A DNA stretch of 64,000 nt, from the IMG/VR virus record IMGVR_UViG_3300045988_062793; one strand, 5' to 3'. This DNA is from a virus. The position numbers and the translations under genes are program-made. Of this stretch, positions 10,166 to 62,001 are shown piece after piece; the first letter of the stretch is position 1; each line of letters begins with the position of its first letter. The notes beneath the pieces were generated by a model. It was not told where the DNA came from. It ran no database searches and worked only from the letters and a program-made list of their open reading frames with translations.

Positions 10166-10250
10166 ATCCGTGTGGGTGAATGGTTTAGCCATCAGTCTGC
10201 AAAACTGAAAAGAGAAATCTTTAATGAGGGTTCGAATCCCTCCACGGATT
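10166..10250 (+). tRNA. Class II tRNA (long variable arm, 3-bp D-stem, Ser-like architecture) carrying a Cys-type anticodon GCA
   Basis: Acceptor atccgtg/cacggat, anticodon stem tcagt/actga with loop ctgcaaa, roughly 18-nt variable arm, T-arm gaggg ttcgaat ccctc; 85 nt in total. Confidence 0.5.
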
Positions 10251-10270
10251 CTAATTTTAAATTTAAAAAT

Positions 10271-10906
10271 ATGGCATATATTTATTGCATTACAAATTTA
10301 ATTAATAGCAAGCGATACGTAGGAAAAACTACTACTTCTATAGAAGAGCGCTGGAAGGAACATTGTTATGACTTTTAGAAAGAAAGATGCAACAAAAGAC
10401 CTTTATATGATGCCATGAATAAGTATGGTGTTGAGAACTTTATGATAGAGGAATTGGAATATGTAGATAGTAACTCTGAATTATCTGAAAGAGAAATCTA
10501 TTGGATAAAAGAGCTAGGAACTTATGGTTCTAATGGGTACAATGCCTCTAAAGGAGGAGATGGCACTATTCTATACAATCATAGTGAAATTGTAGAATTA
10601 GCTAGATTGGGATATACTAGTTCTTAGATACAAGAAAAAATAGGGTGCTGTAAAGACACTATTTACAAAGTTTTGAAGGCAAATAATATAAAAATTAGAA
10701 AAAGTAACGCAAAGTTAATTGCTTAGTATGACTTAGCAGGTAATTTTATACAGGTATTCTTTGGTTCCAGAGAAGCTTAGGAATGGTTAATTAATAACGG
10801 AATTACTGACAATAAATCTGCATAGAGTCATATTATAGGATGCTGTAAGAATAAAACCAAATCATAGTATGGCTATATTTGGAAATATCTTCCAGAGCCT
10901 ATTTAA
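10271..10906 (+). CDS. GIY-YIG homing endonuclease gene (N-terminal GIY-YIG domain, C-terminal HTH / GxIWKY-type DNA-binding region); single frame interrupted by 6 in-frame TAG codons and ending in TAA
   Basis: MAYIYCITNLINSKRYVGKT...RWKEH and ...RPLYDAMNKYGVENF...YWIKELGT...GYN...GG are GIY-YIG signatures; C-terminal ELARLGYTSS[TAG]IQEKIGCCKDTIYKVLK is a classic HTH. TAGs sit at 10376, 10625, 10724, 10778, 10823 and 10865; no TAA or TGA in frame until 10904. The ORF track splits it into 10115..10378 and 10415..10627. Confidence 0.7.
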
Positions 10907-11052: not shown

Positions 11053-11130
11053 CGTGGAGTAGAGAAGTGGTCATCTCGCTAGGCTCATAACCTAGAAATC
11101 GTCATAAACGGTTCGAATCCTACCTCCGCA
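11053..11130 (+). tRNA. tRNA-like element with CAT anticodon arm (Met/Ile-type) but non-canonical T-arm and acceptor; possible pseudo-tRNA
   Basis: Good 5' acceptor strand cgtggag, TA, D-arm gaga agtggtca tctc, anticodon arm ctagg ctcataa cctag; the downstream ttcgaat T-loop is out of register and the 3' strand ctccgca does not pair with the 5' strand. Confidence 0.3.
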
Positions 11131-11375
11131 ACGAAACTCCTTTTGTGGCTCTGAATTAGATTAATTATTAACAATTTTAAACTTTGATGTTATGAAGAAA
11201 GTAATTAATGTTGTGAAGAAAGCTGCTAAGTGGTATTTTGAACAGAGTTCTAAGAGCTATACATGGTTAGTTTCTGGAACTATTCCGCCTCCTTATAGAG
11301 GTCTAGAGTAAAGATACTACTAAAAGGTAAGTACCAAAGGGGTACTTATCTACACCCGTGGAGAAAATTAACTAT

Positions 11376-11977: not shown

Positions 11978-12050
11978 GGGCCGTTAGCTCAAATGGCTAG
12001 AGCGCTGGTTTTGCACACCGGAAGATAGGGTTCGAGTCCCTGCGTGTCCA
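11978..12050 (+). tRNA. tRNA-Ala (anticodon TGC) candidate with poorly paired acceptor stem (possibly nonfunctional)
   Basis: Canonical D-arm gctc aaatggcta gagc, anticodon stem ctggt/accgg with loop tttgcac, T-arm taggg ttcgagt ccctg; acceptor strands gggccgt and cgtgtcc pair at only 4 of 7 positions. Confidence 0.45.
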
Positions 12051-26987: not shown

Positions 26988-28538
26988 ATGGAAATAATTA
27001 ATGCAACAGATGGCTATAAATTGGGCCACCATAGAATGTATCCAGAAGGTACTGAACAAGTTTACAGTAATTGGACTCCTAGAAGTAACAAATACTTTCC
27101 AGAAGCCACTGAAGGTTCTGTAGTATTCGGAATCCAATATTTAATTAAGAAGTATCTGATTGATGAATTTAATCAGAATTTCTTTGGATTGCCCAAAGAG
27201 AAAGCTGTAGAAATGTTTTATCGAAGAGTTCATAACTTCGTGGGAATTGAGTCCGTAGGATATAAACATATTGAAGCCTTGTATGATTTAGGTTATCTTC
27301 CCATTCGCATTAAAGCGTTGCCAGAAGGTTCTGTATGTCCTATCAGAGTTCCCATGATGACTATTACTAATACAAAGTCAGAGTTCTTCTGGTTAACTAA
27401 TTATCTAGAGACTTTGATTAGTTGTACTCTGTGGATGCCTTGCACTTCTGCTACTAGAGCAAGACTCTATAAGAAGGAACTTAAAAGACACGCAGTACAT
27501 ACTGGATTTCCAGAAGATGTAAATCTGGATTTCTTGTGTCATGACTTCTCTATGAGAGGAATGGCTGGTTTAGAGGCTGCTATCATTTCTGGTATGGCAC
27601 ATATGACTTCGTTTGTTGGAAGTGAGACCATTCCAGCTATTGCTGCTCTAGAAGAATATTATGGTGCAAATTCTGACAATGAATTAATTGCTGCTACTGT
27701 TCCAGCTACAGAACATTCTGTAATGTGTGCTGGTGGAGAAGAGGACGAACTTCAAACCTTTAAGCGATTAATTAATGAATTGTATCCATCTGGGTTCGTT
27801 TCTATAGTTTCTGATACTTGGGACTTCTGGAATGTTATTGAAAACTTCCTTCCCAAATTAAAGAAGGATATTATGGCTCGTGATGGGCGTGTAGTTATTC
27901 GTCCAGATAGCGGAGACCCCGTTGATATTATTTGTGGACTGAGAACTAATCCTCACTTCCATACTAGGATGAAAGAGGGTAAGTATTATTGTTGCTATGC
28001 TCCATTTAACGATGATGCTGAGTATGTAGAAGTGTCAGAGGGTCAATATTACGGAGCATATTATATGCTTGGTAAGATATTCGGCTGGAATACTACTTCT
28101 AAGGATTATCGCTATCCTAGTACGAAAATAGGTTTGTTGTATGGTGATTCTATCACTCTTGAACGTCAGAAGCAAATCTATATGCGACTTGAGAACGCTC
28201 ATATGGCAGCTTGCAATCTTGTTCTAGGAGTAGGCTCATTTTCATATCAGTATGCAAGTAGAGATAGCTTAGGATTTGCAATTAAGGCTACTGCTTGTGT
28301 AATTAATGGAGAATTGAAAGAAATCTTCAAACATCCTAAAACTGATGATGGTACTAAGAACTCTTTGAAAGGTTTGATTGCTGTCTATAAAGGTCTGGAT
28401 GGGAAGTATACTGCTACCGACCAGGTCTCAATCGAGGAGGAAAAAGAGGGATGCTTAGAGACTGTCTTTGAAGATGGTATCTTGAAGAAAGAATATTCTC
28501 TTGAAGAAATCAGACAAAGAATTGACCATGGACTTTAA
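26988..28538 (+). CDS. nadV: Nicotinamide phosphoribosyltransferase (NAMPT/NadV-like; alternatively a NAMPT-like Namat of NAD reconstitution pathway 1)
   Basis: N-terminal INATDGYKLGHHRMYP matches the NAMPT ATDSYK(V/L)xH motif; length 516 aa. Confidence 0.75.
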   Translation: MEIINATDGYKLGHHRMYPEGTEQVYSNWTPRSNKYFPEATEGSVVFGIQYLIKKYLIDEFNQNFFGLPKEKAVEMFYRRVHNFVGIESVGYKHIEALYDLGYLPIRIKALPEGSVCPIRVPMMTITNTKSEFFWLTNYLETLISCTLWMPCTSATRARLYKKELKRHAVHTGFPEDVNLDFLCHDFSMRGMAGLEAAIISGMAHMTSFVGSETIPAIAALEEYYGANSDNELIAATVPATEHSVMCAGGEEDELQTFKRLINELYPSGFVSIVSDTWDFWNVIENFLPKLKKDIMARDGRVVIRPDSGDPVDIICGLRTNPHFHTRMKEGKYYCCYAPFNDDAEYVEVSEGQYYGAYYMLGKIFGWNTTSKDYRYPSTKIGLLYGDSITLERQKQIYMRLENAHMAACNLVLGVGSFSYQYASRDSLGFAIKATACVINGELKEIFKHPKTDDGTKNSLKGLIAVYKGLDGKYTATDQVSIEEEKEGCLETVFEDGILKKEYSLEEIRQRIDHGL

Positions 28539-45305: not shown

Positions 45306-47474
45306 ATGCAGGTAGTAAAAAGAGACGGAAGTTTACAGGAGTTTGATAGTAATAAAATAGTAGAAGCAATATCTAAGGCATTTAACGCCTGCTGCCCAGA
45401 TGAGAACAGAGACGTTATTAATGCTATGGTATCAGATATGCATTTATGGGATGGAATTACTATTGAAGAAATTCAAGATGTTGTAATTGAGACCTTGAGA
45501 GACTATGGTTATGATGATGTAGCCTCGGCTTATTCTCAATATAGAAGTGAGCAATCTAGGCTTAGAGAAATCATAGCTAAGATTAGTTATCAAGACAACT
45601 ATATAAATAGTTCTGAAAATGCAGCCACTTCATCTGAAACAGATGGAAATGCTAATGTTGTATCTAAGAATGTTGCTACATTAGAAAGTGAAGACAGAAA
45701 GCGCGAAAACAGAGAAATTCAACGCTATCGTATGAAGAAGAAATTAAAACTTCTTTATCCTGAATTATCTTCCCAATATGCTAGAGACTTAGATAGTCAT
45801 ATTATCTATACTCATGATGAAGCTTCTACCTCAGTACTTAAACAGTATTGTATGGCAGTTTCATTATATCCCTTAATGCTTGAAGGAGTAGGCAATATCG
45901 ACGGAGTTACTCCAGGTCCTCCTAATGATTTGCAGTCATTCAGTGGACAGGTTACTAATCTAGTATTTCTACTGTCTTCTCAATGTAAAGGAGCAGTAGC
46001 TGTGGGAAGCTACTTCATTGCTCTTAATTATTACATCATAGCTGAATATGGAGAAAAATGGTATGAAAAGCTTGGCTGTATATGTACCTCCGAGCATTCA
46101 CTCATTAAGCGTACTATTAAAGACAGTATTCTCAAAGCATTCAAACAATTTGTTTGGGGAATTAATCAGCCTGCTGGAAATAGAAGCTATCAGTCGCCCT
46201 TTACTAATGTATCATATTATGATAAGACATACTTCGAGTCCTTGTTTGGAGAGTTTTATTATCCAGATGGAACGAAACCGGAGTGGAGTGCGATTGATAC
46301 ATTGCAAAGACTATTTATGTCTTGGTTCAACAAGCTGCGTTTGAAACAGGTACTAACCTTCCCAGTTGAAACTTTCGCTATGGTGCATGACGGAAAAGAT
46401 ATTATAGATAAGGAATACAAAGATTTGTGTGCAGAAATGTATGCACAAGGTCATAGTTTCTTTACTTATATTTCTGATAGTGCAGATAGTCTAGCTTCGT
46501 GTTGTAGACTTCGTAATGAATTGGCGGAGAATACATTTAGTCCTACCTCTGGTATGACTGGAGTGAAAACTGGTTCTTGTAATGTAATTACTTTAAACAT
46601 TAACAGAATTGTTCAGGATTGGGCTAAGGAAGAAACCACCTGGTGGAGTGAAGAGGGAGATAAGAATCTTCTTCATTGCAAAGACAATATTCCACTGCTC
46701 AAGAAATACTTAGTGAATATTCTAGAAAGAGTTTATAAGTATCACATTACTTATAAGACTATGCTCTATGAATGGGAAGAAAAGAAGATGTTTGCTTCTT
46801 CTAATGGTGGATATATCAATATTAAAGACCTATACAGTACTATTGGTTTAAATGGTTTGAATGAAGCTGCTGAGTTCCTGGGACTGAAAGTATCTAATAA
46901 TCCAGAGTATTTCGAGTTCTTGCAGCTAATCCTCGGAACTATTAAGGAGCAGAATAAGATTCATTCCATCCACGATAAGAAAAGACCTTTCCTATTTAAT
47001 TCTGAAGTTGTTCCAGCAGAGGGACTTGGTGGTAAAAATTATAGATGGGATAAAGAAGATGGATATTGGGTTCCAGAAGATAGGAATTTGTACAATAGCT
47101 ATTTTTATAATGCCCATGATGATACCTCTGTATTAGATAAGTTTATACTTCATGGGAGACAGACTTATCAATATACTGATGGGGGTAGCGCAGCTCACAT
47201 AAACCTAGAGGAACATTTATCTAAGAAGCAGTATTTGAAGCTCATAGATTTTGCTATTGAACAAGGAACTAACTACTTTACGTTTAATATTCCGAACAGT
47301 AAGTGTGAGGATTGTAAACATATTGTAAAAGCCCCAATCAAAGTATGTCCAAAGTGTGGAAGTGAGCATATTACCCAGTATACTAGAATTATTGGCTATC
47401 TAAGACCTATTACTGCATTTGGTAAGGATAGAAGAATAGAAGCTGAAAAGAGAACTTATTCAAAAAGTGTATAA
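45306..47474 (+). CDS. nrdD: Anaerobic ribonucleoside-triphosphate reductase (class III) with N-terminal ATP-cone
   Basis: ATP-cone VVKRDGSLQEFDSNKIVEAI; C-terminal Zn-ribbon CEDCKH...CPKCGSEH and glycyl-radical motif RIIGYLRPI. Confidence 0.8.
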   Translation: MQVVKRDGSLQEFDSNKIVEAISKAFNACCPDENRDVINAMVSDMHLWDGITIEEIQDVVIETLRDYGYDDVASAYSQYRSEQSRLREIIAKISYQDNYINSSENAATSSETDGNANVVSKNVATLESEDRKRENREIQRYRMKKKLKLLYPELSSQYARDLDSHIIYTHDEASTSVLKQYCMAVSLYPLMLEGVGNIDGVTPGPPNDLQSFSGQVTNLVFLLSSQCKGAVAVGSYFIALNYYIIAEYGEKWYEKLGCICTSEHSLIKRTIKDSILKAFKQFVWGINQPAGNRSYQSPFTNVSYYDKTYFESLFGEFYYPDGTKPEWSAIDTLQRLFMSWFNKLRLKQVLTFPVETFAMVHDGKDIIDKEYKDLCAEMYAQGHSFFTYISDSADSLASCCRLRNELAENTFSPTSGMTGVKTGSCNVITLNINRIVQDWAKEETTWWSEEGDKNLLHCKDNIPLLKKYLVNILERVYKYHITYKTMLYEWEEKKMFASSNGGYINIKDLYSTIGLNGLNEAAEFLGLKVSNNPEYFEFLQLILGTIKEQNKIHSIHDKKRPFLFNSEVVPAEGLGGKNYRWDKEDGYWVPEDRNLYNSYFYNAHDDTSVLDKFILHGRQTYQYTDGGSAAHINLEEHLSKKQYLKLIDFAIEQGTNYFTFNIPNSKCEDCKHIVKAPIKVCPKCGSEHITQYTRIIGYLRPITAFGKDRRIEAEKRTYSKSV

Positions 47475-51561: not shown

Positions 51562-51779
51562 CACTAGAAGAACTTAAAAAGAAAGTAGTCACTATTACAG
51601 TACACAAAAATATTGTATTAGGAGAAGATTTACAGGAAGAATGGCTAAAGAAATATATAGAGGAAGAGTTCGTTAGCGATGAAGAGCTTTTGAAAACCTT
51701 AATCGAGAATGAATATGACTACAGTGGACTAGATGATGTATTAGACTATGATGATTATAAGGTAACTATTCATGATTAA
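51558..51779 (+). CDS. Hypothetical acidic protein (73 aa)
   Basis: ORF track. Confidence 0.4.
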   Translation: MTLEELKKKVVTITVHKNIVLGEDLQEEWLKKYIEEEFVSDEELLKTLIENEYDYSGLDDVLDYDDYKVTIHD

Positions 51780-52971
51780 ATATTTGTTAAGCAAAGCCTC
51801 TACTGGTAAATTTAGAGTTGTATACCTATCTACTACTGAAGAGTGGGATGAAGAAAAAGCTGGATTTGTAATAAATAGAGTTACTGGACAGCTACATGGA
51901 AAGATGACAGAACAGCCAGAAATCGTTATTACTAAGGGTAAGGCTGGTAGAACGCATAGAGAGCAGCTTGAGTTACAGTTTAAGTCTGAGCTTAAGAAAT
52001 ATTTAGATAAAGGTTACAAGGAAATGGAAAATGATCCGGAAACCTACAGTGAAACGCAATTGGAGGAGTTTTATGGAGACATCAAGACGGACCAGAATGG
52101 ATTTGCAAAGCATATGCTTGCAAAATCTGCAGATAAGGTTAAAGAATCCTCAATCAATAAGGTCAAGTATTGGTATGCTAGCCGAAAAATTGATGGAGTT
52201 AGGTGTTCCTTCTACTACAAGGATGGTGAGATTTTATCTGCTTCTAGGGGAGGGGGAAATTATGACTATTCAACAGGTCATATCAGAAGAAATGAGAAAT
52301 TGCTTAAGTTCTTCGAATCTCATCCCGCTTACATACTTGATGGAGAGTTGTATAAACATGGTAAAAGCCTCCAACAAATCAGTGGAGCAGCTCGTCTTGA
52401 GAAGAACGCAGTTGACTGCGACTGGCTTGAATATTATGTTTACGACATCATGATTCCTGGAATGAAGTTCTCAGATAGATTAGAGATTCTTAAGCAGTTG
52501 CAAAAGGAACTTAATCTTGGATTTGACCCAAATAGAGAATGGGAAGAAGGAGAACTTCAAATGCAATTAGTTCCACAGGAGAAGGTTTCTGGATATGAGA
52601 ATATAATGAAACTCCACGACCAGTATGTATCAGAAGGTTGGGAAGGAGTAGTATGTAGAAATCCTGATAAAGAGTATGGCTTCGGAAAACGTACTAATGA
52701 TATGCTTAAATTTAAATTCTACAAGGATGCAGAGTTTGAAATTACTGGCTTATCAGAAGGTCTTCGAGAAGAGGATATGTGTTTTACGTTAATAACTGAA
52801 GATGGTATAGAATTTAAGGCTAAGCCGATGGGTTCCAGAGAGCTTAAGCAGCAGTATAGAGAAAGACTTAAAGAGCTTATTGGAAAGATGGCTACTGTTA
52901 AGTATTTCTATCTATCTGATGAAGGAACACCATTACAGCCTGTTCTAAAGTGTATTCGTGACTATGAGTAA
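51772..52971 (+). CDS. ATP-dependent DNA ligase
   Basis: Motif I SRKIDGVRC (KxDGxR), motif IV WEGVVCR, motif V-like MLKFKFYK. Confidence 0.75.
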   Translation: MIKYLLSKASTGKFRVVYLSTTEEWDEEKAGFVINRVTGQLHGKMTEQPEIVITKGKAGRTHREQLELQFKSELKKYLDKGYKEMENDPETYSETQLEEFYGDIKTDQNGFAKHMLAKSADKVKESSINKVKYWYASRKIDGVRCSFYYKDGEILSASRGGGNYDYSTGHIRRNEKLLKFFESHPAYILDGELYKHGKSLQQISGAARLEKNAVDCDWLEYYVYDIMIPGMKFSDRLEILKQLQKELNLGFDPNREWEEGELQMQLVPQEKVSGYENIMKLHDQYVSEGWEGVVCRNPDKEYGFGKRTNDMLKFKFYKDAEFEITGLSEGLREEDMCFTLITEDGIEFKAKPMGSRELKQQYRERLKELIGKMATVKYFYLSDEGTPLQPVLKCIRDYE

Positions 52972-54877: not shown

Positions 54878-56245
54878 ATGAAGTTATCTAAGAGTAAAAG
54901 AGCCAATGTAAATTATTTGGCGAAGATTGTAGACATTAAAAATTTCAGAGCGCATAGTAATCCAGAAGTTACTAGACTTAAGTGTTGTACCATTGATGGT
55001 TTCAATATCATTACTGGGATTGATTCTCAGCCAGGACTATATGTATATTTTCCAACGGCTTGTTGTATAAATCCAGATTTTCTGAGATATTGTAATCTTT
55101 ATCGTCATAAAGAATTAAACAATGACCCAGAACAAACTGGTATGTTTGAGGATAATGGTAGAGTAAAAGCTATCAGATTAAAGAATGAGCTGTCTGAAGG
55201 TTTTATTCTTCCAGTAGTCCAGTTTCAGAACTATATAATGTCTGTGACTAATAAGGAGATTGAAGTTGAAGAAGGTATTGAATTTGATATTGTAGAACAT
55301 GAAGGCAAAGAATTTTGGATTAACAAAAAGTACATTCCCAAGAGACAACAGGGACAAGGGGGAACTCCACGTAACAACCAAACGAAGAAAGTCAAAGGAA
55401 TCAGCAAGGTTATTGATGAACAGTTTAGATTCCACTACGACACAACTCTTATTAAGAAATGTCCTAATGTAATTCATCCTAATGACTTAATTAGTATTAC
55501 TGAGAAAATACATGGTACTTCTGGTATTTCAGCATATGTTTTGTGTAAGCAAGACCTAGATTGGAAACAGAAGATTGCTAAATGGTTGACAGGAGAAGAG
55601 TTTAATAAGTATGACTATCTCTATGCCTCTAGAACTGTAATTAAGAATCAGTTCTATAACAAAAATGTTACTCCAGGATTCTACGGATGTGATGTTTGGG
55701 CAGAGGCTGATAAAATAGTAAAGCCTTGTTTGTCTAAAGGCATGACAGCATATTATGAGATAGTAGGATTCTTACCGAATGGTGGTTATATCCAAAAGAA
55801 CTATGATTATGGATGTATGCCTCCTAAAGAAGGAGAAGCATATACTCCAGAGAAACACTTTAAGGTTCGTATCTATCGAGTAACTATAACTAATGTTGAT
55901 GGAGTTGTTCACGAGTTTTCTGCTCGTGAAGTTCAACAATGGTGTGCCAAGGTTGGGCTTACCCCAGTGGAAGAATGGTATTATGGAACTGCAAAAGCTC
56001 TATATCCAGAACTTAATGAGTCTGAACATTGGAACGAAAACTTTATGGAGAAGTTAGCAAATGATACTCAGTTCTATATGGAACGTACTTCTCCGTCTTG
56101 CGATAATAAAGTACCTCATGAGGGTATTGTTATCAAAATAGAGAATATGAAATCAGAGGCTTTCAAATTGAAATGCTTTAAATTCCTGGATAAAGAAGGA
56201 AAGGAGTTAGATAAGGGAGAGTCTAATATTGAGGATGAAAATTAA
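54878..56245 (+). CDS. ATP-dependent RNA ligase, Rnl2-like nucleotidyltransferase
   Basis: Motif I TEKIHGTSG (KxHG), motif IV HEGIVIKIE (EGxVxK), motif V-like FKLKCFKF; 455 aa. Confidence 0.6.
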   Translation: MKLSKSKRANVNYLAKIVDIKNFRAHSNPEVTRLKCCTIDGFNIITGIDSQPGLYVYFPTACCINPDFLRYCNLYRHKELNNDPEQTGMFEDNGRVKAIRLKNELSEGFILPVVQFQNYIMSVTNKEIEVEEGIEFDIVEHEGKEFWINKKYIPKRQQGQGGTPRNNQTKKVKGISKVIDEQFRFHYDTTLIKKCPNVIHPNDLISITEKIHGTSGISAYVLCKQDLDWKQKIAKWLTGEEFNKYDYLYASRTVIKNQFYNKNVTPGFYGCDVWAEADKIVKPCLSKGMTAYYEIVGFLPNGGYIQKNYDYGCMPPKEGEAYTPEKHFKVRIYRVTITNVDGVVHEFSAREVQQWCAKVGLTPVEEWYYGTAKALYPELNESEHWNENFMEKLANDTQFYMERTSPSCDNKVPHEGIVIKIENMKSEAFKLKCFKFLDKEGKELDKGESNIEDEN

Positions 56246-59602: not shown

Positions 59603-59837
59603 CTATCCAATGGGTGCAGCTAATGACCCTAGAGCACCTTACAATGAACCACTACCTACTAAGGTTAAGGTAGAAGTAGGAGTTGAATTAGGGTTATTCG
59701 TAGATGTAGAAGTAATAGATGAAGATGATATTAAAGGTGCAGTTGAAGAAGCTATTTATAATAGGTTCAAATCCAAAGATGTTGAAATAAATAACATCGA
59801 AATCTATCAACATGATTTATTTAGTAAGTCGGAATAA
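59577..59837 (+). CDS. Hypothetical acidic protein (86 aa)
   Basis: ORF track. Confidence 0.4.
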   Translation: MTHMTTLDNYPMGAANDPRAPYNEPLPTKVKVEVGVELGLFVDVEVIDEDDIKGAVEEAIYNRFKSKDVEINNIEIYQHDLFSKSE

Positions 59838-62001
59838 AACTTTATTTGTGTCTACAAAATACAAAGAAGTAAGTTTCGAGGAGGCAATGAAAATATTGTT
59901 GCCTCTTTCTTTAGTTCAATTTGATACTGAAACTAAGGGATTAGATGCGCATACTAAGGAGTTACTAACTGTGCAACTAGGTTGCAAAGAAAATCAAGTT
60001 GTCTTTGACTGGACAACTATGTCAGCAGAAGAGAAAGCTGAGATAAAGAATTATTTTGAGTCTGATAGAGTATTTCTTGGATGGAATTTAATGTTTGACT
60101 TAGGGTTTTTATATGTGCAGGATATTTGGCCAAATTATATCTGGGATGGTATGATTGCCGAGAAATTACTTTGGTTAGGCTATCCAGCTAATATAAGAGA
60201 AATGAGTTTGAAAGCAGCTGCATGGAATTATCTAAACTATGACTTAGATAAATCTGTTCGAGGTAAGATTATAAATGATGGTCTTACTGAAGATGTAGTA
60301 GTCTATGCTGCAGGAGACGTAATGTGGCTAGAAGACATTAAAGAAAAACAAGAAATAGAGCTTGCTAAGCAAGAATTAAATCTTGCTATGAAACTTGAGT
60401 GTGAGTTTATCAAGAGTCTTGCTTATTTCAAGCATTGCGGTGTTCATCTAGATGTCGTAAAATGGAGAAATAAGATGGCTAAAGACCTTGTTAAGCTGAA
60501 GGATGCTGAGCAAGAACTAAACGATTGGGTAGTTCAATGGGATTCTGAAAAGAGACATGAGCATGATGGATGGGATATTAAATACCCAGAACTGGAATTT
60601 TATAATCTTATGGAAATAGAGGATGAAGTAGCTAGACTGCTAAAAGAGAAATATGTCCGATGCCCTCAGGAAGACCTTGAAACACCAGACGGAAAGGTTA
60701 AAGCTTATAGAAAAAGAGTAATAAGTCAATTTACTAAGGTAGATAATCAAGGTGATTTATTTAATGGCTTTGATACCAAGCCTAAGTGCACAATTAACTG
60801 GAGTAGCTCTCAACAAGTTATCAAGTTATTTGAATTATTAGGAATTAAAGTCAAGACATTTGATAAGCAAACTAAGAAGGAAAAGAAATCTGTTGAAGCT
60901 AAGCTTCTAGCTCCACAGGCTAAAGATTTCCCGATTATTCCTATCTATCTAAAATATCAGGAAGCTGCAAAAGTGGTTTCTACTTATGGGGAAAACTGGT
61001 TGAAGGCAATTAACCCTAAGACTGGAAGAATCCATGTAGATTTTCACTCACTAGGAGCTGATACAGCTAGAGTAAGTTCTGGAGGAGGAGTATATAAACT
61101 TAATCTACAGAATTTACCTCATGACAAGGAAACTAGAGCATGTTTTACTGCAGAGAAAGGTAATAAGTGGATTTCTGCGGATTATCAGTCTCAAGAAAGT
61201 AGAATCATTGCTTCTGTATCTAAGGACGAGGCTATGATTGAACTATTTGAACATGGCTGTGGGGATGTTCATAGTCTAGTAGCTAAAATGTCTTATCCGA
61301 ATATTATCCCTAGAGACTGCCCTATAGAGGATATAGCTAAATTATATCATGCCCAAAGACAGGATGCTAAAGGTATTGAATTTGCCATCAATTATGGAGG
61401 CGATGCAAATACTATAGCTAATAACAAGGGTCTACCGTTGTCAGAAGCTCAAGAAATCTATGATAACTTTATGAAGGGTTTCCCTGGAGTAAAACAGTAT
61501 CAAGATTATTGTAGAATGGCGGTAATGAGGGATGGTTATATTTTGTTAAATCCTATAACTAAGCATAGAGCACATATATATGATATTGATGACCTCTGGC
61601 GGATTTCTAAGAAGTTCAATGACCCAGAGTTCTGGGATTATTACAGAGAAATGAAGAGAGATTCTCCTGGCTGTGATACCGTCCAAGACGTTAAGAGATA
61701 TTTTCAGAGAAAAGCAGCATCTGAAAAGCAGTCTATCAATTATCGTATTCAGAACAGGGGAGCAATGTGTTTTAAACTTTCCTCTATTAAACTATTTAAT
61801 TGGATTAAGGAGCATAAGCTTCTTAACATTGTTAAGATGTGTGTTCCAGTCCATGACGAGTTTAATCTAGAATGCCCAGAATCTATTGCCGATGAAGTAT
61901 CTAAGGTATTAGTTAAATGTATGATAGATGGAGGGAAACCATTCTGTCCTAATGTATTTTTAGGTGCAGATGTTACTGTATCAGATCATTGGATTCATTA
62001 A
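59812..62001 (+). CDS. polA: DNA polymerase I (family A) with 3'-5' exonuclease domain
   Basis: Exo I LVQFDTETKGLD; Pol motif A ISADYQSQESRI, motif B RQDAKGIEFAINYG, motif C PVHDEF. Confidence 0.85.
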   Translation: MIYLVSRNKTLFVSTKYKEVSFEEAMKILLPLSLVQFDTETKGLDAHTKELLTVQLGCKENQVVFDWTTMSAEEKAEIKNYFESDRVFLGWNLMFDLGFLYVQDIWPNYIWDGMIAEKLLWLGYPANIREMSLKAAAWNYLNYDLDKSVRGKIINDGLTEDVVVYAAGDVMWLEDIKEKQEIELAKQELNLAMKLECEFIKSLAYFKHCGVHLDVVKWRNKMAKDLVKLKDAEQELNDWVVQWDSEKRHEHDGWDIKYPELEFYNLMEIEDEVARLLKEKYVRCPQEDLETPDGKVKAYRKRVISQFTKVDNQGDLFNGFDTKPKCTINWSSSQQVIKLFELLGIKVKTFDKQTKKEKKSVEAKLLAPQAKDFPIIPIYLKYQEAAKVVSTYGENWLKAINPKTGRIHVDFHSLGADTARVSSGGGVYKLNLQNLPHDKETRACFTAEKGNKWISADYQSQESRIIASVSKDEAMIELFEHGCGDVHSLVAKMSYPNIIPRDCPIEDIAKLYHAQRQDAKGIEFAINYGGDANTIANNKGLPLSEAQEIYDNFMKGFPGVKQYQDYCRMAVMRDGYILLNPITKHRAHIYDIDDLWRISKKFNDPEFWDYYREMKRDSPGCDTVQDVKRYFQRKAASEKQSINYRIQNRGAMCFKLSSIKLFNWIKEHKLLNIVKMCVPVHDEFNLECPESIADEVSKVLVKCMIDGGKPFCPNVFLGADVTVSDHWIH

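Follow-up and report, generated by a model that had tools for sequence, protein, structure and literature searches.

A long-arm tRNA with cysteine-type identity marks in a large phage, and its counterparts in unrelated phages

In bacteria and their viruses a long variable arm is, by the textbook account, limited to the transfer RNAs (tRNAs) for leucine, serine, tyrosine and selenocysteine (Sec), and annotation pipelines name a tRNA from its anticodon alone. Here we describe a tRNA gene that joins such a long-arm, class II body to the cysteine-type anticodon GCA. It lies at positions 10166-10250 of a 64,000-nucleotide (nt) stretch of viral DNA from the IMG/VR record IMGVR_UViG_3300045988_062793, hereafter the window. 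An initial annotation had read the element as a Ser-like tRNA that could insert serine at UGC and UGU codons, or else as a decaying Ser tRNA. Our analysis leads us to a different view, namely that it is probably a functional cysteine elongator tRNA on a class II body that would be charged by the host cysteinyl-tRNA synthetase (CysRS). The main interest lies less in this one tRNA than in a general phage habit of placing class I tRNAs on long-arm bodies: the long-arm design with full cysteine marks recurs in many unrelated phages, cultured ones included, and extends to Asn and other isotypes.

The nearest tRNAs to have been described are the selC* tRNA-Cys and the allo-tRNAs, both of which have an 8/4 or 9/3 arrangement of the acceptor and T stems (PMC5389517). 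The selC* tRNA-Cys likewise carries a long arm, U73 and a GCA or UCA anticodon, in some cases with A1:U72 as its first acceptor pair, and it provides a precedent for the charging of a long-arm tRNA by CysRS-type enzymes (Mukai et al. 2017, PMC5389517). The first acceptor pair is contacted by the CP1 domain of CysRS, and an A1:U72 form of selC* tRNA-Cys needed a dedicated CysRS (PMC5389517). These tRNAs are bacterial, come from anaerobes and are tied to selB* and cysS* genes, whereas the window tRNA is encoded by a phage, has a 7/5 arrangement and an ordinary D arm, and shows no selB*/cysS* linkage in the window. The allo-tRNAs and the nematode nev-tRNAs (PMC5389517; PMC3333845) likewise combine a long arm with an anticodon other than those of Ser, Leu or Tyr. 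In both, the body sets the identity (Ser or Leu), and the outcome is mistranslation or suppression. In the window tRNA, unlike these, the discriminator base fits the amino acid of the anticodon, which points to cognate decoding.

Three further systems bear comparison. Canonical class I tRNA-Cys shares with the window tRNA the CUGCAAA loop with GCA, U73, a D stem of 3 base pairs (bp) with a purine13.A22 mismatch and the 7/5 arrangement, and the copy that resides in the same window also has the same acceptor-stem top. It differs in having a variable loop of 4-5 nt, against a 17-nt arm that has a GAAA loop on a stem of 4-5 bp, and in its usual G1-C72, against A1-U72. Bacterial tRNA-Tyr has an arm of like geometry (a short stem of 3-5 bp with about one unpaired nt on its 5' side and 3-4 on its 3' side) and a loop, CUGUAAA, that is one base off CUGCAAA, but its A73 and U35 are absent from the window tRNA, which scores lowest on the Tyr model among the hidden Markov models (HMMs) of the three class II isotypes. 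Lastly, the defence systems Septu and retron-Eco7 have nucleases that cut tRNA variable loops but spare a phage tRNA whose variable loop differs (PMC13096335). The tRNA-Tyr of phage T5 is likewise a phage tRNA with a divergent variable region in a cluster with GIY-YIG genes; its escape is experimental and it is a class II tRNA anyway, whereas any such resistance of the long-arm Cys tRNA would be hypothetical.

Fold and identity marks of the window tRNA

Within the window's first 20 kb ARAGORN called 16 tRNAs, among them one with anticodon GCA at 10166-10251. The Rfam family RF00005 matched 10166-10250 over its full model at 56.3 bits (gathering score 29; E = 6e-10 over 22 kb), a mid-range score among the tRNAs of the window, and this general tRNA model was the best match within its clan. 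The minimum-free-energy fold (-26.7 kcal/mol, z = -2.78) has the same anticodon, variable arm and T arm, and no alternative fold with a different anticodon was proposed by any of the tools applied (ARAGORN, Rfam and folding). The 85-nt class II body with its GCA anticodon, 3-bp D stem and long variable arm thus stands as the initial annotation had it, as does the presence of a conventional, 74-nt tRNA-Cys(GCA) nearby (Table 1). The acceptor stem of 7 bp and the T stem of 5 bp are Watson-Crick throughout, with A1-U72, U2-A71 and C3-G70 at the top of the former; U8, G9 and A26 are also present. U48, which ends the tail of the variable arm, can pair with A15. U8 and C65 cannot pair, and the 8/4 or 9/3 arrangement of the allo-tRNAs and selC* tRNA-Cys is absent. 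A 3' CCA is not encoded. The gene starts 2 nt past the stop codon of the upstream open reading frame (ORF) and ends 20 nt short of the start codon of a GIY-YIG gene.

The initial annotation overlooked the discriminator, U73. In bacteria and yeast CysRS relies chiefly on U73 and the GCA anticodon (reviewed in PMC9976931), and both are present. Of the other tRNAs in the window, the class I tRNA-Cys at 8310 has the same U73, whereas the Ser tRNAs at 702 and 3695 both have G73 and the Leu tRNAs at 6785 and 20131 both have A73. The long-arm tRNA and the class I tRNA-Cys also have in common the top of the acceptor stem (A1 or G1 opposite U72, then U2-A71 and C3-G70) and the inner D stem, with U12.G23 and G13.A22. 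Two Cys-type features are absent, the class I variable loop of 4-5 nt and a G1-C72 first pair.

Serine marks are mostly lacking. G1-C72 and G2-C71 are conserved in most bacterial Ser tRNAs, and how many of the variable arm's bases are unpaired is among the traits by which class II identities are told apart (PMC9976931). The Ser-type features that we tested, namely an NGA or GCU anticodon, G73, G1-C72/G2-C71 and the Ser arm geometry, are all absent, and where the window's own Ser tRNAs start GGA the long-arm GCA tRNA has A1-U72 and U2-A71 instead. The Ser-type features present are the long variable arm and the 3-bp D stem, the two traits that had been taken for a Ser architecture; the latter does not discriminate, being found in the class I tRNA-Cys as well. 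It is also true that the anticodon loop is one base from the CUGCUAA loop of the tRNA-Ser(GCU) at 3695, but this closeness carries no weight, for the resemblance to that tRNA, examined as a possible origin, is limited to the D arm.

The geometry of the arm agrees. For every class II tRNA called by ARAGORN in the 126 viral loci described below, we parsed the variable arm and counted the nt left unpaired 5' and 3' of its stem. Ser arms are (1,1) with a stem of 5-7 bp, Leu arms (0,1) or (1,2) with 3-6 bp, mostly 4-5, and Tyr arms (1,3) with 3-4 bp, while the long-arm GCA tRNAs of these loci have (1,3) or (1,4) with 3-4 bp. The window tRNA is (0,3), or (1,4) with the outermost A-U pair open, as that pair must be in one natural variant (L014), and its stem is 4-5 bp long. 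Set against the (1,1) of Ser tRNAs, this arm is therefore not of the Ser type; the short stem with 3-4 unpaired 3' nt and the R15:Y48 pair are among the features that the tRNA shares with the wider GCA group, along with the 7/5 cloverleaf, GCA and U73. Since it has U73, no Ser acceptor pairs and an arm of non-Ser geometry, a serine identity is unsupported.

For leucyl-tRNA synthetase A73 is crucial, the key determinants of tyrosyl-tRNA synthetase are A73 and U35, and for seryl-tRNA synthetase (SerRS) the long variable arm is the main determinant. The Tyr marks are absent, with U73 and C35 in their place. A leucine origin or identity was considered in view of the A15-U48 pair and a Leu-like D loop, GAAUGG; we rejected Leu identity because of U73 in place of A73 and a score of 21.7 bits on the Leu HMM. 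An origin from tRNA-Tyr by a GUA to GCA change, which the Tyr-like arm geometry and the lack of any ARAGORN tRNA-Tyr call in the window had made attractive, is unsupported, for the Tyr HMM gave 11.6 bits, A73 is lacking and the GCA group is coherent in itself. The marks of tRNA-Sec are also missing, since the arrangement is 7/5 and not 8/5, the D stem is not long but has 3 bp, and the anticodon is GCA and not UCA.

Conservation in relatives and the wider long-arm group

The tRNA is conserved in related phages. An exact-pattern scan that allowed any anticodon recovered 16 IMG/VR contigs, 45-192 kb long and mostly above 90 kb, all with GCA. The tRNA is 100% identical in 16 related contigs, whereas the upstream 600 nt are 94-100% identical and in some contigs only 94-96%. 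In three of the relatives (L004, L007 and L015) the downstream endonuclease gene is replaced by a version 80-83% identical to window positions 10251-10850, with the tRNA unchanged. In most others the tRNA and the endonuclease gene form a block that is 100% identical despite an upstream flank of 94-96%, a pattern that suggests that the block may have spread by endonuclease-driven gene conversion. The tRNA region also matches an unannotated human-gut phage scaffold at 95.6%. A 153-kb contig with identical tRNA and flanks (L146, CALEBD010000406.1) has been binned into an 'uncultured Clostridium sp.' metagenome-assembled genome (MAG), which is a weak host hint or a binning artefact.

More divergent copies show what is kept. 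The variant in a 17th contig, L014, differs at N1, where its first pair is G1.U72, and has one inserted D-loop base, a change at the outermost possible pair of the variable arm and one at a T-loop base; GCA and U73 are retained. A scan with the D-arm sequence found a copy in a 412-kb phage (L254) that has an identical D arm, GCA, U73 and A15:U48 and differs from the window tRNA by seven double changes that each keep a base pair, spread over the acceptor, anticodon and T stems. The same scan found a disrupted gene in L255 (IMGVR_UViG_3300045988_058617, 1290-1420), in which an 8-nt deletion, CAAAACTG, has cut out the anticodon's final two bases, what remains of its loop and the greater part of the anticodon stem's 3' strand, and 22 nt are inserted ahead of the T arm. 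The tRNA is thus under structural constraint yet dispensable, which fits the presence of a second tRNA-Cys. The conservation and the compensatory changes contradict the proposal that the element is a decaying Ser tRNA.

The design is not confined to this family. We searched IMG/VR with the pattern CTGCAAA-N(19-30)-GGTTCGAATCC and examined 126 viral loci among the matches listed. Of these, 102 carry a tRNA(GCA) no shorter than 80 nt where the pattern matched, in at least 68 distinct sequences, and at least 66 distinct long-arm GCA tRNAs lie beyond the window's own family, in unrelated phage contigs. U73 is found in 65 of the 68. In the same loci A73 marks 69 of 70 Leu and 35 of 37 Tyr tRNAs, and G73 marks 56 of 66 Ser tRNAs. 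For 40 diverse members, the window's among them, RNAalifold returned a cloverleaf with a 3-bp arm stem flanked by one unpaired nt on the 5' side and three on the 3' side, with compensatory changes at 21 of 23 pairs. In this alignment 96% of cells are paired, against 61% in shuffles and 33-47% with the partners slid, with a covariation score of 0.924 against 0.218. All members have much the same core, made up of U8, G9, a 3-bp D stem, R13.A22 and A14, and the Levitt pair covaries, being G15:C48 in 57 of the 68 and A15:U48 in six members that include the window's. Long and short Cys tRNAs occur as pairs in at least 22 loci, and in the unrelated loci L026, L041, L070 and L124 the two tRNAs of one locus have their acceptor-stem top in common, as they do in the window.

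At the level of primary sequence the members form a coherent set, scoring a median of 51 bits on the group's HMM, but the window tRNA is an outlier. When the anticodon and position 73 were masked, the Ser HMM came top for 61 of the 68, though discriminator and arm geometry are non-Ser, and these home-made DNA HMMs do not settle isotype. The window tRNA is placed in the group by its structure and identity marks, not by descent, and it may be a divergent member or of independent origin.

Cellular genomes gave a different picture. Among the 120 matches listed for the same pattern in one genome per prokaryotic species, 10 were long-arm GCA tRNAs; seven of these lie within arrays of 10-29 tRNAs per 8 kb, and one belongs to the window's phage, in a 'Clostridium sp.' MAG. 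Because the cellular matches are few and mostly sit in dense tRNA arrays, we treat the group as phage-borne. A bacterial genome contig (L246, 3344-3428) holds a Tyr-bodied tRNA with A73, an encoded CCA and anticodon GCA, a case of one-base anticodon drift that is clearly unlike the U73 phage group.

Cultured phages have the long-arm form as well. Deposited phage genomes were searched by BLAST with a concatenated query of 12 members; a single representative, L034, found no long-arm Cys tRNA in them. Xanthomonas jumbo phage XacN1 carries an 89-nt form ending U73-CCA, with no other Cys tRNA in its 50-kb tRNA region, the part examined, and Rhizobium phage B1VFA an 84-nt form, also U73-CCA, as one of four annotated tRNAs in its first 50 kb. 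A further 84-nt form, in Pseudomonas phage D6, is known from annotation only. All three are annotated plainly as 'tRNA-Cys', and a full-text literature search found no papers that describe 7/5 long-arm Cys or Asn tRNAs in phages; the group is thus annotated in public records, with no discussion found in the literature.

The habit extends well beyond cysteine. XacN1 (AP018399 20000-69999, L252) also has long-arm tRNAs for Lys(CUU), Gly(UCC), Thr(UGU) and Asn(GUU), whose discriminators are, in that order, A, U, A and G; its Lys, Thr, Asn and Cys arms are of one style, with one nt, a 3-bp stem, a loop and CAUC. The array L256 (5195-5989, minus strand) holds a long-arm tRNA-Ile(GAU) with A73 and a D arm identical to that of the window tRNA, a normal-length Ile copy, and long and short pairs for Asn and Asp as well. 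Across the phage arrays (L256, L252 and L257 onward) long-arm forms of class I tRNAs are common, namely of Asn, Ile, Asp, Thr, Lys, Gly, Met, Val, Gln, Pro, Arg, Glu, Trp and Phe, often beside a copy of ordinary length that shares the anticodon. Long-arm Asn(GUU), scanned for in its own right, occurs in 107 of 115 loci, in at least 102 distinct sequences, with G73 in 91 of 102. The distinct Cys tRNAs of these Asn-selected loci number 8 long and 22 short, all with U73, a rough figure because the loci were chosen for their long-arm Asn tRNA.

These tRNAs provide the strongest argument against serylation. Among class I-anticodon tRNAs of at least 80 nt in the viral loci, covering 14 isotypes, the discriminator that is modal in normal-length tRNAs of the isotype is found in 111 of 119, and in 46 of 52 when Cys is left aside, which argues that identity follows the anticodon rather than the arm. 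Serylation is made unlikely by this comparison because it would turn all long-arm class I tRNAs into mistranslating ones, with no reason for them to keep their own discriminators.

Charging, decoding and the role of the arm

We favor a model in which the window tRNA is a working cysteine tRNA. It would be transcribed together with the neighbouring genes and excised by host RNase P and the 3' processing enzymes, and CCA would have to be added post-transcriptionally because the gene does not encode it. Host CysRS would then charge it with Cys through U73 and G34-C35-A36, and it would decode UGU and UGC alongside the ordinary tRNA-Cys, with the long arm tolerated and not used for identity. Cys accounts for 1.94% of the codons in the window ORFs, with 232 UGU and 83 UGC codons.

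Several observations weigh against this model. The G1-C72 first pair expected for CysRS is absent, and A1-U72 is rare even among long-arm GCA tRNAs, being found in only 2 of 68 where G1-C72 is found in 61; the class I tRNA-Cys of the same phage also lacks a G-C first pair, having G1.U72. On the group HMM, with its own family left out, the window tRNA scores 30.7 bits, the same as on the Ser HMM. The broken copy in L255 indicates that the tRNA is dispensable. Finally, 10 of 66 distinct phage Ser tRNAs have U73, so that this base alone does not exclude SerRS in every host. These U73 Ser tRNAs occur in L041, L046, L058, L061, L080, L081, L096 and other loci; several have odd D arms and may correspond to the 8/4 tRNA-Ser that Mukai et al. 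(2017) described from phages.

What the arm might be for is a separate question. Our preferred guess is that it makes the phage copy unlike the host tRNA, so that tRNA-cleaving defence nucleases would spare the phage copy; a second possibility is that it protects the gene from tRNA-targeting homing endonucleases. By analogy with T5 tRNA-Tyr, a nuclease-resistant, structurally marked tRNA is a reasonable, if speculative, idea. We hold only tentatively, and think it somewhat doubtful, that the whole parallel set of long-arm tRNAs (Cys and Asn most often, then Ile, Thr, Lys, Gly, Met, Asp and others) is adaptive in this sense, that is, correctly charged and escaping tRNA-cleaving nucleases or homing endonucleases. 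If these tRNAs are cognately charged, CysRS, asparaginyl-tRNA synthetase and other synthetases would tolerate a large extra arm, phages would keep a structurally marked set of tRNAs relevant to tRNA-targeting antiphage defences, and synthetic biology would have natural long-arm scaffolds to draw on. If they are serylated instead, the result would be large-scale recoding in many large phages.

A role mainly outside translation, either as a decoy or nuclease-resistant substitute or as a gene immune to homing endonucleases, overlaps with the model we favor but is, taken as the principal function, unlikely. The ordinary tRNA-Cys makes the long-arm copy redundant for decoding, one relative has lost it, and long and short pairs with the same anticodon recur (Ile, Asn and Asp in L256, Cys in the loci counted above). 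T5 tRNA-Tyr resists through its distinctive variable loop, and SegB-type GIY-YIG endonucleases reside in phage tRNA clusters (PMC13096335); in the window a GIY-YIG gene follows the long-arm tRNA within 20 nt, and B1VFA, a carrier of the long-arm Cys tRNA, also encodes an RtcB-type RNA ligase. Against such a role, full cysteine marks and a conserved cloverleaf are what a working translator needs, and no defence or counter-defence gene is linked to the tRNA within the window. For the likely hosts, we are aware of no defence nuclease with tRNA-Cys as its target.

That SerRS reads the arm and the tRNA inserts serine at UGU and UGC, as the initial annotation proposed, we regard as improbable. Beyond the weight of the arm for SerRS and the Ser-like D arm, such a missense tRNA could appeal to the masked HMMs, where Ser is top for most of the group and first-equal for the window tRNA, to the U73 found in some phage Ser tRNAs, and to allo-tRNAs with G73 or U73 and odd anticodons, which have been proposed as Ser acceptors (PMC5389517). 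It has to contend with G73 in both Ser tRNAs of the same phage, with A1-U72/U2-A71 in place of the G1-C72/G2-C71 of most bacterial Ser tRNAs (PMC9976931), and with 3-4 unpaired nt on the 3' side of the arm where Ser arms have one per side and a 5-7 bp stem. A SerRS that charged long arms generally would also make the Asn, Ile, Thr, Lys and Met long-arm tRNAs mistranslate, although each keeps its own discriminator, and in the tRNA region of XacN1 it would claim the sole tRNA-Cys.

That the gene is a non-functional remnant, left uncharged and unused after a class II tRNA (for Ser, Leu or Tyr) was duplicated and its anticodon drifted, is scarcely plausible: the disrupted copy in one relative, two nearby tRNA-like elements that look degenerate, scores of only about 30 bits or less on every class II isotype HMM and the simple drift that does occur in L246 could be cited for it, against perfect stems, the mid-range Rfam score, full identity in 16 contigs with diverging flanks, the seven compensatory changes relative to L254, and a combination of U73 and GCA that is typical of the group and cannot be reached by one change from Ser (G73), Leu or Tyr (A73).

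Surroundings in the window

The gene directly downstream of the tRNA encodes a GIY-YIG homing endonuclease (10271-10906, plus strand) and, as had been reported, contains in-frame TAG codons, six of them before its TAA stop. The first TAG falls inside the Pfam GIY-YIG domain (49.3 bits), so that TAG must be read as an amino acid in this gene. TAG terminates only 4 of the 78 window ORFs of at least 100 amino acids, almost no other long ORF contains it, and no suppressor tRNA (CUA) was found within the window. TAG recoding was considered as an explanation for the GCA tRNA; it is real in the endonuclease gene and has no evident link to the GCA anticodon. The other genes recognised (Table 1) include nrdD, for the anaerobic ribonucleotide reductase, and mark the window as a replication and auxiliary-metabolism region of a large phage; the RNA-ligase-like ORF is a weak match of 22 bits, below the cut-off. 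B1VFA carries a similar auxiliary set, with prohibitin, Nampt, NadM and the RtcB-type RNA ligase.

Table 1. Positions of the long-arm tRNA, its parts and other features of the window
Feature	Position	Strand	Basis
Whole tRNA, 85 nt, class II body, anticodon GCA, U73	10166..10250	+	ARAGORN, Rfam, fold
Acceptor stem, 5' strand AUCCGUG, pairs with 10243-10249	10166..10172	+	Sequence, Rfam alignment
D arm: G10-C25, G11-C24, U12.G23, G13.A22 mismatch, A15	10175..10190	+	Rfam alignment
Anticodon arm UCAGU-CUGCAAA-ACUGA; GCA at 10199-10201	10192..10208	+	ARAGORN, Rfam
Variable arm, 17 nt (AAAGA-GAAA-UCUUU-AAU): stem AAAGA/UCUUU, GAAA loop, 3' tail AAU	10209..10225	+	Fold, arm geometry, covariation in 40 group members
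T arm GAGGG-UUCGAAU-CCCUC	10226..10242	+	Rfam alignment
Acceptor stem, 3' strand CACGGAU	10243..10249	+	Rfam alignment
Discriminator U73, cysteine-type base	10250	+	Sequence
Companion class I tRNA-Cys(GCA), U73, G1.U72	8310..8383	+	ARAGORN, Rfam
Band 7/SPFH protein	1659-3632		
Nicotinamide/nicotinate phosphoribosyltransferase	26988-28538		
NrdD	45306-47474		
ATP-dependent DNA ligase	51772-52971		
RNA-ligase-like	54878-56245		
Family A DNA polymerase	59812-62001		

Three less regular tRNA-like elements lie on the plus strand of the same region. One, at 5166-5242, was matched by Rfam only (30.4 bits against the gathering score of 29), without an ARAGORN call; it has about 4 nt in place of a D arm, a CUUAUAC loop (UAU, of the Ile-AUA type) and an 18-nt insert in the variable region. 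A second, at 11978-12050, resembles tRNA-Ala(UGC), again by Rfam only (39.5 bits), and has three consecutive non-canonical acceptor pairs with G3.U70 kept; it may be a decaying tRNA. The third is an 80-nt tRNA-Met(CAU) at 11053-11132 (Rfam, 39.2 bits) that is irregular between the anticodon stem and the T loop, with 7-8 of 12 acceptor and T pairs parsed, and is conserved in related contigs.

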